DNA of 53,480 nucleotides from the IMG/VR virus record IMGVR_UViG_648028025_000004; one strand, 5' to 3'. A program made the position numbers. This document shows positions 30,001 to 36,000 of this stretch, in pieces (positions within the stretch are counted from its first letter, which is position 1; every line of letters begins with the position of its first letter). Origin of the DNA: a virus. Lineage: Duplodnaviria > Heunggongvirae > Uroviricota > Caudoviricetes.

Positions 30001-33000
30001 AGGAAGTCCAGGAATCAGTGATGCGCATTGAGGCCGGACTGAGCACGTATGAGAAAGAGCTGGCGCTGATGGGCGAGGATTATCAGGACATTTTCCGCCA
30101 GCAGGTCAGGGAATCTGCTGAGCGACAAAAAGCCGGACTCTCACGTCCGGTGTGGATAGCGCAGGCGTATGAGCAGCAGATAGCGGAGAGTCGCAGGCCG
30201 GAAGAGGAGACAACACCACGTGAGACGTAATCTTTCACACATTATTGCCGCAGCATTCAATGAACCGCTGCTTCTGGAGCCCGCCTATGCGCGGGTTTTC
30301 TTTTGCGCGCTCGGGCGCGAGATGGGGGCATCAAGTCTTTCGGTACCACAACAGCAGGTACAGTTTGATGCTCCCGGAATGCTGGCTGAAACGTAAGCGT
30401 CGTCTCAGCACCGTCTGGCAGATCCTGAAATTCCTGAGAGAATAGTGGACACCAAATATGGTGGACGCTATCCATGAAATCATTAACCGCAGTGCGTAAA
30501 AAAAGCCCTAATTATCCCGTTGAGTTCAAAATCAAAATGGTTGAACTCTCGCATCGACCAGAGATCTCCGTAGCGCAACTCGCTCGTGAGCATGGGATCA
30601 ACGATAATTTGCTGTTCAAGTGGCGCCAGTACTGGCGCGAAGGAAAACTACGTCCTCCTTCAACAACAGAAAACAACGTGCCTGAGCTGCTCCCGATAAC
30701 ACTTGATGCCGAAGATGTTGTCCCTACAACCTCCCCCCGGTCACAACCTGTAGCTGCTGCGACACCTGAATCACTCAATATCAGCTGTGAAGTGACGTTC
30801 CGGCACGGATCACTCCGTCTGAATGGTGCCATCAGCGAAAATATCCTGAACCTGCTGATACGGGAGCTCAAACGTTGATCCCATTACCATCAGGGACAAA
30901 GATCTGGCTGGTCGCTGGCATCACCGATATGAGAAACGGCTTCAACGGCCTGGCGGCAAAGGTGCAGACGACGCTGAAAGACGATCCGATGTCAGGTCAC
31001 GTTTTTATCTTCCGTGGGCGTAATGGCAGTCAGGTAAAGCTCCTCTGGTCTACCGGCGATGGACTGTGTCTGCTGACCAAACGGCTGGAGCGCGGCCGCT
31101 TCGCCTGGCCGTCAGCCCGGGATGGCAAAGCGTTCCTCACACCGGCACAGCTGGCGATGCTGCTGGAAGGTATCGACTGGCGGCAGCCTAAAAGACTGCT
31201 TACGTCCCTGACTATGTTGTAAGCCTCTTTATCCTGGTCGACGCTGAATGAGCCTGGTAATATACCCGGTATGAGCAGCTCACTTCCTGACGATATCAAT
31301 GCACTGAAACGTCTCCTTGCCGAACAGGAGGCGCTGAACCGTGCCCTGCTGGAAAAGCTGAACGAGCGTGAACGCGAAATAGACCATCTGCAGGCACAGC
31401 TGGATAAGCTGCGCCGGATGAACTTCGGCAGCCGCTCCGAAAAAGTCTCCCGTCGTATCGCACAGATGGAAGCTGACCTGAAGGCACTTCAGAAAGAAAG
31501 TGATACCCTTACCGGTCGGGTTGACGACCCGGCCGTGCAGCGCCCGCTGCGTCAAACCCGCACCCGCAAACCGTTCCCCGAATCACTCCCCCGCGATGAA
31601 AAACGGCTGCTGCCGGCAGCATCATGCTGCCCGGAATGTGGAGGCTCACTGAGCTATCTGGGTGAGGATGCCGCCGAACAGCTGGAGTTGATGCGCAGCG
31701 CCTTCCGGGTTATCCGGACTGTACGTGAAAAGCATGCCTGTACTCAGTGCGATGCCATCGTGCAGGCCCCCGCGCCTTCACGGCCCATCGAGCGGGGTAT
31801 CGCAGGACCGGGGCTGCTGGCCCGCGTGCTGATCTCAAAGTATGCAGAGCACACCCCGCTGTACCGCCAGTCTGAAATGTACGGCCGCCAGGGCGTGGAG
31901 CTGAGTCGTTCACTGCTGTCGGGCTGGGTGGATGCATGCTGCCGGCTACTGTCACCGCTGGAAGAAGCGCTTCAGGACTATGTGCTGACTGACGGTAAGC
32001 TCCATGCTGATGACACGCCTGTCCCGGTGCTGTTGCCAGGCAATAAGAAAACGAAGACCGGGCGGTTATGGACCTACGTTCGTGACGACCGTAACGCCGG
32101 GTCAACGCTGGCGCCGGCGGTGTTGTTCGCTTACAGCCCGGACAGAAAAGGCATCCATCCGCAGACCCATCTTGCGGGGTTCAGTGGTGTACTGCAGGCG
32201 GATGCATACGCCGGGTTCAACGAGCTGTACCGGGATGGCCGGATAACGGAAGCCGCCTGTTGGGCTCACGCCCGCCGTAAAATCCACGATGTGCACGTTC
32301 GCACCCCGTCAGCCCTGACGGAGGAAGCGCTGAAACGGATCGGCGAACTGTACGCCATCGAGGCAGAGATAAGGGGAATGACGGCGGAGCAGCGCCTTGC
32401 CGAACGTCAGTTGAAAACGAAACCGCTGCTGAAATCCCTGGAAAGCTGGCTGCGTGAAAAGATGAAAACCCTGTCGCGACACTCAGAACTGGCGAAAGCG
32501 TTCGCATACGCCCTGAACCAGTGGCCGGCGCTGACGTACTATGCAGATGATGGCTGGGCTGAGGCGGACAATAACATCGCTGAAAATGCGTTGCGGATGG
32601 TCAGTCTGGGCCGCAAAAACTACCTGTTCTTCGGTTCGGATCATGGAGGAGAGCGGGGAGCGCTGCTGTACAGCCTGATCGGGACGTGCAAACTGAACGG
32701 AGTGGAGCCAGAAAGCTACCTCCGCTATGTCCTTGACGTCATAGCCGACTGGCCGATAAACCGGGTCGGCGAACTGCTCCCCTGGCGCGTAGCACTGCCG
32801 ACTGAATAACACATCCCCGTCAATACGGTTCTTGCTGCACGCTTACGTTTGATGGTCGCCCCGCTGTTTTTGATGAGGCGGATTTTCCGGCAATTGCTGT
32901 TTATCTCACCGGCGCTGAATACACGGGCGAAGCGCTGGACAGCGATACCTGGCAGGCGGAGCTGCATATTGAAGTTTTCCTGCCTGCTCAGGTGCCGGAT

Positions 33001-36000
33001 TCAGAGCTGGATTCGTGGATGGAAAGCCGGATTTATCCGGCGATGAGTGCGATCCCGGCACTGTCAGGCCTGATTACCACGATGGTTACGCAGGGCTATG
33101 AGTATCGTCGTGATGACGATATGGCGTTATGGAGTTCTGCTGATTTGACTTATTCCATTACATACGAGATGTGAGGACGATATGCCAACACCAAATCCCC
33201 TTGAGCCGGTAAAAGGTGCCGGTACCACCCTGTGGGTTTATAACGGTCAGGGTGATGCCTATGCAAACCCGTTGTCAGACGATAACTGGCAGCGACTGGC
33301 ACAGGTAAAGGATCTGACGCCGGGCGAGATGACGGCAGAACCCTACGATGATAACTACCTGGATGATGAAGACGCGGACTGGACTGCGACCGGGCAGGGG
33401 CAGAAGTCTGCAGGAGATACCAGTTTTACGCTGGCCTGGAAACCGGGAGAAGAAGGTCAGAAAGGGCTTATAGGCTGGTTTGAAAGCGGGGATGTGCGGG
33501 CCTATAAAATCCGTTTCCCGAACGGCACGGTGGATGTGTTCCGTGGCTGGGTCAGCAGTATCGGTAAGGCCGTAACGGCGAAGGAAGTGATCACCCGTAC
33601 GGTGAAAGTGACCAACGTGGGTAAACCTTCTGTGGCGGAAGAACGCAGCGAAATTACGCCGGTCACTGCGATTAAGGTGACGCCGACATCTGGTACGGTG
33701 GCAAAAGGGAAAACAACAACCCTGACGGTTTCTTTTGAGCCGGAAAGTGCAACCGACAAAACGTTCAGAGCGGTTTCCGCCGATCCGTCAACGGGAACCA
33801 TTGCTGTGAAAGATATGGCGATCACTGTGACGGGGGTTAAGGCTGGAAAAGTGAGTATCCCCGTGATTTCCGGTAATGGTCAGTTTGCCACGGTAGCTGA
33901 AGTCACCGTTACTGAAGCGGGCGCTGCAGGGTAAACGGAGGTAATACATGTTTCTGAAAACCGAACAATTTGAATATAACGGTGTGTCCGTCACGCTTTC
34001 CGAGCTGTCTGCGCTGCAGCGTATCGAGCATCTTGCCCTGCTGAAACGACGGGCAGAACAGGCTGAAGCCAGCGGTAACCTGCAGGTGAGCGTGGAAGAC
34101 CTTGTCAGAACCGGCGCGTTTCTGGTGGCGATGTCCCTGTGGCATAACCATCCACAGAAAACGGAGTCACCATCAATGAATGAGGCTGTGATGCAGATCG
34201 AACAGGAGGTGCTCACCACCTGGCCTGCTGATGCCATTGCCCGGGCGGAAGACGTGGTGTTGCGTCTGTCCGGGATGAGCGGGGCTGTTCATGTGGATAC
34301 GGATATCACCGAAGTGGCGAAAAATAACGCGCTTACTGATGATGATTTTTCTGCGGGAAAGTCTTCGACGGCGAGCTGAATTTTGCCCTCAGACTGGCGC
34401 GAGAGATGGGGAGGCCTGACTGGCGCGCCATGCTTGCCGGGATGACATCCACCGAATATGCCGACTGGCGACATTTTTACCGCACGCATTATTTTCAGGA
34501 TACCCAACTGGATATGCATTTTTCCGGGCTGATGTACGCTGTACTCAGCCTGTTTTTTTGCGATCCGGATATGCATCCCTCTGATTTCAGTCTGCTTGTC
34601 CCCCGGCATGAGGAAGAGCAGGTGGAGAGGCTGGATGAGGACAAAATGCTGATGCAGAAAGCGGCAGGACTTGCCGGAGGCGTCCGGTTCGGTGGGGACG
34701 GAGGGGGCGATATTTTATCGTCTGCGGATGTGGCGGATGTCATGGTGGATGATGCCGCATTAATGATGGCTTCAGCGGGGATTCCGGGAGGTGTGAGATA
34801 TGTCCCAGCCGGTTGGTGATCTTATTATTGACCTGAGTCTGGATGCGGTCCGTTTCGATGAGCAGATGAGCCGGGTAAGGCGTCATTTTTCAGGACTGGA
34901 TACTGACGCCAGAAAAACCGCCACTGCTGTTGAACAGGGCCTGAGCCGTCAGGCGCTGGCTGCGCAAAAAGCCGGGATTTCCGTCGGACAGTATAAAGCG
35001 GCCATGCGCACCCTGCCCGCACAGTTTACGGATATCGCCACGCAGCTTGCCGGTGGTCAGAATCCCTGGCTGATCCTGCTGCAACAGGGCGGTCAGGTGA
35101 AGGACTCCTTCGGCGGGATGATCCCCATGCTCAGGGGGCTTGCCGGTGCGATCACCCTGCCGATGGTCGGGGTCACCTCGCTGGCGGTGGCGACAGGTGC
35201 GCTGGCGTACGCCTGGTACCAGGGGGATTCCACGCTTTCAGCGTTTAATAAAACCCTGGTTCTTTCCGGTAATCAGTCCGGACTGACTGCCGATCGTATG
35301 CTGACTCTCTCAAGAGCCGGGCAGGCAGCAGGGCTGACGTTTAACCAGGCGAGAGAGTCACTGGCAGCCCTGGTGAATGCCGGTGTGCGTGGTGGTGAAC
35401 AGTTTGATGCCATCAACCAGAGTGTCGCGCGTTTTGCGTCTGCATCCGGTGTGGAGGTGGATAAAGTCGCTGAAGCCTTCGGGAAGCTGACCACTGACCC
35501 GACGTCGGGACTGATGGCGATGGCGCGCCAGTTCCGTAACGTGACGGCAGAGCAGATTGCGTATGTTGCACAGCTGCAGCGTTCCGGAGACGAGGCCGGG
35601 GCATTGCAGGCGGCGAACGATATCGCCACGAAAGGCTTTGATGAGCAGACCCGTCGCCTGAAAGAAAACATGGGAACACTGGAGACCTGGGCGGATAAAA
35701 CAGGGAAGGCATTCAAATCGATGTGGGATGCCATTCTGGATATCGGTCGTCCGGAATCCTCAGCGGATATGCTCGCCAGTGCGCAGAAGGCATTTGATGA
35801 GGCGGATAAAAAATGGCAGTGGTACCAGAGTCGGAGCCAGCGCCGCGGTAAAACCTCCTCTTTCCGGGCCAACCTTCAGGGCGCATGGAATGACCGGGAA
35901 AATGCCCGTCTGGGGCTGGCAGCGGCCACGCTGCAGTCGGATATGGAAAAAGCCGGTGAACTGGCCGCCAGGGACCGGGCCGAACGGGACGCATCACAGC

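Follow-up and report, generated by a model that had tools for sequence, protein, structure and literature searches.

The window, the whole 53,480-nucleotide stretch of DNA analysed here, contains a prophage in which a single, complete ISEc22 element is directly seen to stand in place of the head-gene block between C and U. This joint very probably arose when two ISEc22 copies underwent homologous recombination, rather than by transposition. We infer this from the sequences on either side of the element, since they are the outer halves of two duplications that are seen intact in C and in U elsewhere (Table 1).

The window corresponds to the E. coli O26 prophage at attLambda (ybhC/ybhB) with nleH, cif and espJ, and this prophage is decayed, lambda-like and effector-carrying. 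Its surviving late genes follow the lambda late operon (Nu1-A-W-B-C/Nu3-D-E-FI-FII-Z-U-V-G-T-H-M-L-K-I-J) in both order and homology; the difference is the IS, which takes the place of C nt 174 to U nt 68. Compared with the intact phage PhiR12_1, identity is 98% in B and the C remnant and 88.6% at the nucleotide level across the U remnant and the start of V, and the V proteins are 73% identical in amino acids. Further lesions are a deleted immunity region, a frameshifted O and additional ISs; the prophage nevertheless has intact tail genes and retains nleH, cif and espJ, which encode T3SS effectors.

Homology to PhiR12_1 ends at 30392/30393 and restarts at 32847. As the original prediction had it, about 57 codons of C follow portal gene B, and U resumes beyond an IS66-family element that replaces the head block: alignment to PhiR12_1 gives C nt 1–173 (57 codons and 2 nt) on the left and U from nt 69 on the right, ISEc22 takes the place of the block that begins at C codon 58 and ends at U codon 23, and the predicted interval, 30220–33174, spans the C remnant, the IS and the U remnant exactly. 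The open reading frame of the C remnant (30220–30396, 58 aa) takes the last base of codon 58 and its TAA stop from the IS end. The U remnant, which lacks its first 23 codons, matches Pfam Phage_tail_U at profile positions 25–130 of 130. RefSeq labels the two remnants 'S49 family peptidase, incomplete, missing C-terminus' and 'minor tail U, incomplete, missing N-terminus', respectively.

Table 1 Features at and around the ISEc22 joint (window coordinates)
Feature	Coordinates	Strand	Details
Portal gene B, intact, 530 aa	28638..30230	+	ORF; tblastn 98% identity to PhiR12_1 B across 530 aa; RefSeq 'phage portal protein'
Head protease/scaffold gene C remnant, nt 1-173	30220..30392	+	Homology to intact C stops at 30392/30393
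Left flanking 8-mer GCTGAAAC	30385..30392		Equals a copy of the duplicated target at the ISEc22 insertion in C of relatives
ISEc22 (IS66 family), complete, 2,454 bp	30393..32846	+	Ends GTAAGCG...CGCTTAC
tnpA, 134 aa	30474..30878	+	Pfam HTH_Tnp_1, E=9e-12; RefSeq IS66-like accessory protein TnpA
tnpB, 115 aa, IS66 Orf2-like accessory protein	30875..31222	+	Pfam TnpB_IS66, E=4e-38
tnpC, DDE transposase, 512 aa	31271..32809	+	Pfam DDE_Tnp_IS66, E=9e-107, with LZ_Tnp_IS66, zf-IS66 and DDE_Tnp_IS66_C
Right flanking 8-mer GTTTGATG	32847..32854		Equals a copy of the duplicated target at the ISEc22 insertion in U of B1_2
Tail terminator gene U remnant, nt 69 to stop	32847..33174	+	In frame from 32848, 108 codons; without its own start codon
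V, G, T and first ~330 nt of H (H start 34800), directly downstream of the IS	33182..35130	+	SNP-pattern tables

About 4.2 kb is missing: 4,229 bp by comparison with the corresponding prophage of strain CAU16175, and 4,197 bp by comparison with PhiR12_1. What has gone is the remainder of C/Nu3, the whole of D, E, FI, FII and Z, and 68 nt at the start of U. With the PhiR12_1 proteins as tblastn queries, D, E, FI, FII and Z had no match anywhere in the 53-kb window at E<=1e-3, which bears out the predicted loss of these genes and of most of C and Nu3. A lambda-like prophage able to form particles would have a complete head module of C/Nu3, D, E, FI and FII, together with the head-tail and tail-completion genes Z and U; the window prophage lacks this set and encodes no capsid proteins of its own. 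The stronger claim that it cannot make capsids should be confined to genes in cis, and capsid loss is one of several lesions. Searches for intact capsid, protease and decoration genes, and for a matching 8-bp duplication at the IS ends, found neither. The loss of head genes as such is routine prophage decay and is already annotated.

Identical DNA is named 'IS66-like element ISEc22 family transposase' in RefSeq. The element has three consecutive intact ORFs, tnpA-tnpB-tnpC, and all Pfam matches are full length. Its termini (GTAAGCGT... on the left, ...ACGCTTAC on the right) form an imperfect repeat in which GTAAGCGT is the same at both ends and, judged by eye, some 15 of the first 29 positions agree; a repeat search at seed 9 missed it. 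Imperfect terminal inverted repeats starting GTAAGCG are a family trait of IS66. The window copy has the published length of ISEc22, an IS66-family element of 2,454 bp (PMC5001619), and is 99.7–99.96% identical to seven other copies, six of them full-length and one, the copy in U of AUSMDU00014361, truncated at IS nt 1996.

The window ISEc22 has no 8-bp duplication: GCTGAAAC and GTTTGATG differ, as the original prediction stated, and the element is therefore not a simple insertion. These mismatched flanks are informative because all six other full ISEc22 copies examined have perfect 8-bp duplications; the absent duplication is a product of the history of the window copy, not a property of ISEc22. 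Four different target 8-mers were seen (TATTTACT, ATATATTC, GCTGAAAC and GTTTGATG), and they have no common motif, which makes chance re-use of both the C and the U site unlikely. To our knowledge, the transposition chemistry of the IS66 family is not established, and an unusual site preference of ISEc22 is therefore formally conceivable.

The C–IS–U joint of the window is present in 401 of 5,426 complete E. coli genomes and is thus not an assembly artefact. Both simple insertions from which it could have arisen are found, in the same orientation, in relatives. CAU16175, an ST29 strain (PMC7479848), has the same attLambda prophage (ybhC-int ... nleH-cif-espJ-ybhB), with Nu1, A, W and B proteins identical to those of the window. 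In this prophage, ISEc22 interrupts C as a simple insertion (GCTGAAAC, IS, GCTGAAAC), and none of the genes C, D, E, FI, FII, Z and U is missing. The same insertion in C, with the same duplication, occurs in B1_2 and AUSMDU00014361, joined to the ybhC-side arm. B1_2 has, at locus L005, the insertion in U (GTTTGATG, IS, GTTTGATG), with both junctions intact and C to Z intact upstream; the truncated U copy of AUSMDU00014361 retains the left U–IS junction only. All C and U copies lie on the late-operon strand, as the window copy does. The right arm of B1_2, to ybhB, has 68 differences from the window in ~6,850 positions, five of which (one a 1-nt gap in B1_2) fall within the first 5.2 kb past the IS.

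We suggest that ISEc22 entered lambda-like late genes twice, independently and in the same orientation. In the head protease/scaffold gene C, the insertion would have followed nt 173 and duplicated GCTGAAAC; in the tail-terminator gene U, it would have followed nt 76 and duplicated nt 69–76 (GTTTGATG). A crossover within the 2.45-kb repeats, presumably RecA-dependent, would have left one intact IS with the outer copy of the C duplication on its left and the outer copy of the U duplication on its right, and would have taken the intervening 4.2 kb out of the window prophage. The window shows just such a signature, a single intact IS flanked by the outer halves of two different duplications. Both copies within one prophage were seen neither among the 5,426 complete genomes nor in JGI metagenome contigs. 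The SNPs within the IS copies do not separate the C copy from the U copy, and a chimeric IS therefore cannot be demonstrated.

The original prediction explained the joint by an IS-mediated adjacent deletion. In such an event, a lone ISEc22 in C or U would have attacked a target 4.2 kb away on the same molecule in a single transposition-coupled step, with loss of the intervening DNA and with one old and one new junction. The end product fits, in that one intact IS without a duplication is bordered on one side by a contiguous loss of phage genes, and a single-copy precursor is known in the orthologous prophage of CAU16175. However, neither end-point is a fresh target: both are ordinary ISEc22 insertion sites, used in the same orientation and flanked by perfect 8-bp duplications in close relatives. 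Whichever copy came first, the 'new' target would have to be, in exact base-pair position and orientation alike, the duplication-flanked site that ISEc22 occupies independently in a sister lineage, in an element whose targets lack a common motif. We consider this explanation improbable. Still less credible, to the point of being negligible, is an ISEc22 insertion into a pre-existing deletion joint or a joint made by assembly collapse; the former would have left an 8-bp duplication, of which there is none, and the latter is contradicted by the identical joint in independently finished genomes.

Recombination between two copies could have taken either of two routes, to which we give roughly equal weight. 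In route (a), both ISEc22 copies would have been in the attLambda prophage of the window and the head block lost by direct-repeat deletion. In route (b), the U copy would have been in DNA of the yfaT prophage (X, with Y the attLambda prophage), and an IS x IS exchange between prophages would have occurred on an already inverted chromosome such as those of B1_2 and AUSMDU00014361. In these two independent assemblies, the C and U insertions are in two hybrid prophages, Mb apart, and the chromosome carries an inversion with end-points in the attLambda and yfaT lambdoid prophages. Because the insertions lie in separate hybrids there, and because yfaT-type DNA adjoins the window IS, two copies in one plain prophage would require extra exchanges.

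The SNP types beside the IS bear on this choice. We mapped positions as window coordinate = CAU_Y index - 8581 + 32847, under which the positions of B1_2/window mismatches agree. Across the SNP clusters at 34172–35130, the window agrees throughout with B1_2 locus B and with the CAU16175 copy of the yfaT prophage X, agrees with X of E2865 only to ~34334, and is unlike the attLambda prophages of CAU16175 and O111 11128; between 35131 and 35296 it switches to the attLambda type. Two B1_2 loci, A and B, combine a Y-type arm (compare O111 11128) and an X-type arm (compare CAU16175 X) in exactly reciprocal fashion, with the X/Y crossover between CAU_Y index 10865 and 11030. This crossover falls to the right of the U site, and thus the B1_2 U copy is in X-derived DNA; to its left is a major-capsid gene E with a 144-bp deletion and to its right are X-type G-T. 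In the X prophage of E2865, T and the beginning of H are of attLambda type, U is intact and the heads are X-type throughout. Taken at face value, these SNP types hint that one of the recombining copies sat in the paralogous yfaT prophage.

Under route (b), ISEc22 in C of Y would have recombined with ISEc22 in U of X-derived DNA on a chromosome with a prior X x Y inversion. The IS x IS crossover would re-invert the chromosome and give Y the C–IS–U joint; the head block, instead of being simply deleted, would end up in the yfaT prophage, and the duplication thus formed would collapse later. The X-derived surroundings of the B1_2 U copy, the reciprocal arms of loci A and B, the right arm of the window, identical in type to B1_2 locus B down to the switch point, the attLambda-type patch in E2865 X, which a reciprocal exchange predicts, and the occurrence of the inversion in two assemblies are all consistent with such a history. 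Yet the reciprocal U–IS–C junction is kept in no window-type genome; because of its intact U and X-type heads, collapse in E2865 X would need an extra patch at index 9906–10068 and a crossover confined to the final quarter of the repeat; and the event counts of the two routes are only about one apart. We regard it as a serious possibility, though somewhat below even, that the capsid block was exchanged in this way between paralogous attLambda and yfaT prophages on opposite replichores, through non-allelic ISEc22 copies, by a ~2 Mb inversion and re-inversion around the terminus. If so, B1_2 and AUSMDU00014361 would be surviving intermediates of the exchange, and non-allelic IS copies would make ordinary prophage–prophage inversions a module-stripping mechanism.

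Recombination between two ISEc22 copies has a close parallel in Agrobacterium tumefaciens pAt15955, where mismatched outer 8-mers likewise gave away an IS66 x IS66 deletion (PMC6778807). There, too, the elements are of the IS66 family and directly oriented, each copy has an 8-bp duplication, and a single copy with the outer halves remains after deletion. Unlike in the window, both parents were seen in the same replicon, and no deletion occurred once one copy was removed; here, the parental insertions are seen only in different strains or prophages, 4.2 kb of phage head genes is lost, and the evidence comes from sequence comparison. Ooka and colleagues reportedly described, in Genome Res in 2009, IS629-associated prophage inactivation and deletion in EHEC and IS excision promoted by IEE. 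That system (PMC9943667) concerns the same organism group and has the same outcome, in which IS insertions and IS-linked deletions progressively cripple effector-carrying lambdoid prophages, but IEE acts on the IS3 family by microhomology end-joining, whereas the ISEc22 joint involves an IS66-family element and is clean, with a complete IS and no microhomology scar. The window has its own example of such damage, at 10447–10450. Finally, the large inversions produced by prophage–prophage recombination in EHEC O157 (bioRxiv 10.1101/2020.12.02.407981) are of the same class as that in B1_2 and AUSMDU00014361; the difference is that the inversion here is only a possible intermediate towards the window joint.

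The two simple insertions, one in C and one in U, form with the recombinant joint a clean natural series of IS-driven prophage dismantling. They also caution that an absent target-site duplication does not by itself imply a transposition-coupled adjacent deletion. For the main lineage of E. coli O26, the consequence is a cif/nleH/espJ prophage unable to build capsids of its own, and thus the horizontal spread of these effector genes from such strains would need a helper phage or another transfer route.

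The joint C'-IS-'U lies between the portal gene and the tail genes of the prophage, and consists of an IS66-family element standing in place of the head-gene block from C to U. Alignment to the intact phage PhiR12_1 confirmed this arrangement, together with the interval 30220–33174 of the original prediction. RefSeq names the element ISEc22 and already marks C and U beside it as truncated. Its three open reading frames are intact, with Pfam matches to HTH_Tnp_1, TnpB_IS66 and the full DDE_Tnp_IS66 transposase. The imperfect IS66-type terminal repeat escaped a repeat search at seed 9, and the ends were instead compared by hand. 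The element is a standard ISEc22, of the published length of 2,454 bp (PMC5001619), and agrees with the IS66 family in every testable feature except for a duplication at this copy: the 8-mers beside it, GCTGAAAC on the left and GTTTGATG on the right, differ, as had been noted from the sequence.

Features of the joint and other insertion sequences in the window
Feature	Position	Length	Remarks
Portal gene B	28638–30230		intact
Gene C remnant	start 30220		homology to PhiR12_1 ends at 30392/30393 (C nt 173)
ISEc22	30393–32846	2,454 bp	ends GTAAGCG...CGCTTAC
U remnant	from 32847		phage homology resumes at U nt 69; Pfam Phage_tail_U positions 25–130 of 130
IS600	about 7316–8577
IS629	14007–15316	1,310 bp
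ISCro1 (IS66 family)	48647–51345	2,699 bp

The DNA missing at the joint amounts to 4,229 bp relative to prophage Y (the cif prophage at attLambda) of strain CAU16175 and 4,197 bp relative to PhiR12_1; lost with it are the remainder of C/Nu3, all of D, E, FI, FII and Z, and the first 68 nt of U. The original prediction had proposed looking for the lost genes elsewhere; tblastn with the PhiR12_1 head proteins found no match to D, E, FI, FII or Z within the 53-kb window. In cis, prophage Y of the window lacks genes for the protease/scaffold, decoration protein, major capsid protein, FI, FII and Z, as well as a functional U, and the earlier statement that it cannot make capsids holds for the prophage's own genes.

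Comparison with E2865 and CAU16175 places the window from ybhC to espJ, and it therefore contains almost the entire lambda-like prophage. Prophage Y, of the standard lambda-like kind, occupies the classical lambda attachment site, with ybhC on one side and ybhB/bio on the other. It carries nleH, cif and espJ, which are type III effector genes, together with a DUF1076 (NleG-like) gene. Many complete E. coli chromosomes, among them those of O26 strain RM8426 and bovine strain E2865, match positions 29000–34500 with 100% identity. Right of about 15586 the window is collinear with E2865 (NZ_AP018808.1), with two single-base gaps and an offset of at most 1 nt; left of it the positions of IS629 and IS600 differ (E2865 has IS629 copies close to xis and at its immunity joint, and its IS600 is in ninF), placing the window in a different strain. 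The joint itself occurs in 401 of 5,426 complete E. coli genomes, counted where at least 80% of a 5.5-kb query lay in one collinear place, and is therefore real and fixed in a large lineage.

We constructed artificial 'simple insertion' junctions and used them as queries against complete E. coli genomes. The IS right end followed by GCTGAAAC and the rest of C was found in three genomes, and U' with GTTTGATG followed by the IS left end in two. In the porcine strain CAU16175, an atypical EPEC of ST29 (PMC7479848), prophage Y is in its native setting (ybhC-int ... nleH-cif-espJ-ybhB) and encodes Rha, YlcI, Nu1, A, W and B proteins identical to their window counterparts. Its C gene carries ISEc22 as a simple insertion, GCTGAAAC-IS-GCTGAAAC, followed by C, D, E, FI, FII, Z and an intact U; this prophage is much less decayed than the window elsewhere too, with cI, cro, sieB and O intact. 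The C insertion with its duplication is also present in B1_2 and AUSMDU00014361, on the arm that starts at ybhC. In the bovine strain B1_2, the U gene reads GTTTGATG-IS-GTTTGATG, with C to Z intact upstream. From there to cif and ybhB, the right arm and the window disagree at 68 of about 6,850 positions, 5 of which (one a 1-nt gap in B1_2) fall within the first 5.2 kb past the IS. A 1-nt deletion in B1_2 'U at the IS3-family insertion site of prophage X (the yfaT prophage) of CAU16175 was judged a GGG homopolymer error or a coincidence. All compared ISEc22 insertions in C and U have the orientation of the window copy. Perfect 8-bp duplications flank six of six other full ISEc22 copies, including those in J of E2865 X and in the B1_2 portal gene, and the four target sequences TATTTACT, ATATATTC, GCTGAAAC and GTTTGATG share no common motif.

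B1_2 has three IS66-family insertions inside about 1 kb of target DNA. ISCro1 sits in the same C remnant, about 40 bp upstream of ISEc22 (duplication GGTACCAC; NZ_CP074764.1, L004 4097–6795), as it does in AUSMDU00014361; a third, inverted ISEc22 lies in the portal gene (duplication GAATATAT; L004 798–3251) and is absent from AUSMDU00014361.

The flanks of the window ISEc22 are the outer halves of two genuine target duplications. A crossover between two directly oriented ISEc22 copies would leave such a single IS with the outer duplication halves, and the same logic was used to diagnose an IS66 × IS66 deletion in Agrobacterium (PMC6778807). The original prediction had proposed an IS-mediated adjacent deletion. 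The finding of both duplications in relatives speaks against that one-step, transposition-coupled event, which we regard as improbable: its fresh target would have to match the other ISEc22 insertion in both position and orientation. Had the IS landed in an existing deletion joint, it would be flanked by a duplication, which the window copy lacks, and the 401 genomes with the joint rule out an assembly artefact; these two explanations together merit almost no weight. With all three disfavoured, recombination between two ISEc22 copies is therefore the best explanation, and we infer that it very probably made the joint. SNPs in eight ISEc22 copies, searched for the signature of a chimeric IS, revealed only strain-specific differences.

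Prophage X is a paralogous lambdoid prophage in yfaT, beside gyrA, and carries nleA and nleG. In B1_2 and, independently, in AUSMDU00014361, a large chromosomal inversion with end-points in Y and X yields two reciprocal hybrid prophages (B1_2 L004/L013/L014 and L005/L011/L012; AUSMDU00014361 L007/L019/L020): locus A, ybhC-Y-left ... X-right-yfaS, and locus B, gyrA-yfaA-X-left ... Y-right-ybhB. The orientation of the B1_2 record implies at least one further rearrangement. The crossover could not be mapped from B1_2 alone, since its two loci are almost indistinguishable between YlcI and mid-E; mapping needed CAU16175 X, E2865 X and O111 11128 Y. We aligned Nu1 to H from seven sources, with ISs removed, and typed four SNP blocks right of the U site.

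SNP types right of the U site (s1, window 34172–34334; s2, 34381–35130; s3, 35297–35606)
Source	s1	s2	s3	H remainder
O111 11128 Y (attLambda prophage)	e	e	g	Y
CAU16175 Y	e	e	d	Y
CAU16175 X	z	z	d	X
E2865 X	z	e	d	X
B1_2 locus A	e	e	d	X
B1_2 locus B	z	z	g	Y
Window	z	z	g	Y

The two B1_2 loci correspond exactly to the reciprocal products of a single crossover that joined an O111-like Y to a CAU-like X between s2 and s3, in the 5' end of the tape-measure gene H. This crossover lies right of the U site, and the B1_2 U insertion is therefore in X-derived DNA. In the window, 32847–35130 ('U, V, G and T beside the IS) is of X SNP type, unlike the attLambda prophages of CAU16175 and O111, and the switch to attLambda type falls between 35131 and 35296, the switch point of B1_2 locus B. 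This succession of types shows an exchange between X and Y. A search for the yfaT-int junction (175 genomes) had suggested a window lineage without prophage X, which was ruled out by the presence of X in E2865.

Two origins of the recombining copies are roughly equally probable. Both may have resided in Y and undergone a direct-repeat deletion, which costs about one exchange event more than a crossover between prophages. Alternatively, the chromosome may have been inverted as in B1_2, with a crossover between the C copy of locus A and the U copy of locus B; this crossover would restore collinearity, give the C'-IS-'U joint of Y and send the head block to the yfaT prophage. The X-derived setting of the B1_2 U insertion, the X-type 'U-V-G-T of the window and the common switch point argue for this inter-prophage crossover, as does the Y-type sequence of E2865 X in s2, which it predicts. 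Against it, the complete-genome junction search found the U'-IS-'C junction kept in none of the window-type genomes, and in E2865 X the U gene is intact and the head genes are all of X type. An exact-match scan of JGI metagenome contigs found neither complementary junction, IS-GCTGAAAC-'C or U'-GTTTGATG-IS.

Prophage X has lesions of its own. That of E2865 has the full C–U set, but its terminase large-subunit gene is a pseudogene, and its J gene is split by another ISEc22 (duplication TATTTACT). An in-frame loss of 144 bp (48 codons) shortens the X major capsid gene (885 versus 1,029 nt; E2865 L018 15411–16295) and is conserved in E2865 X, CAU16175 X (L016) and B1_2 locus B (L005).

The window prophage is also damaged outside the head block. 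Relative to CAU16175, 3,081 bp of the immunity region are missing at 10447–10450, taking the sieB C-terminus, three small genes, cI, cro and the start of cII. The window joint there is clean (...GATGGAG-TG-TTGATCG...). E2865 has IS629 exactly at this point and keeps six more nucleotides (GCGTGA) of the original right flank, which suggests excision: the window joint looks like an imprecise, microhomology-mediated loss of IS629 from an IS629-linked deletion. IS-excision enhancer promotes such events (PMC9943667). O (about 11129–11144) carries a frameshift according to the annotation of E2865, whose sequence is identical there, and is intact in CAU16175, from which the window differs in length by about 50 bp at that position. 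The DUF6645/SASA-esterase gene (about 21048–22912) is likewise annotated as frameshifted in E2865 and intact in CAU16175. IS600, IS629 and ISCro1 have inserted into this prophage as well; the 8-mers flanking ISCro1 have one mismatch (TTTTGTTA and TCTTGTTA). An lpxR (lipid A deacylase) gene, an apparent moron conserved in CAU16175, B1_2 and O111 11128, lies on the opposite strand at about 17450–18410, between a truncated antiterminator remnant and the prophage Q gene. Tail genes V to J, lom, stf and the effector genes are still open reading frames. A tailocin-like 'tails only' role was considered and set aside: U is truncated and lacks a start codon, Z has been lost, the immunity/early region is missing, and the ISEc22 copy separates pR' from the tail genes.

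Both IS-driven prophage decay (PMC9943667) and prophage–prophage inversions (bioRxiv 10.1101/2020.12.02.407981) are well documented in EHEC. Our literature search found no paper on this particular C'-IS-'U joint, which is an instance of a known process; only the inter-prophage route would be mildly novel here.
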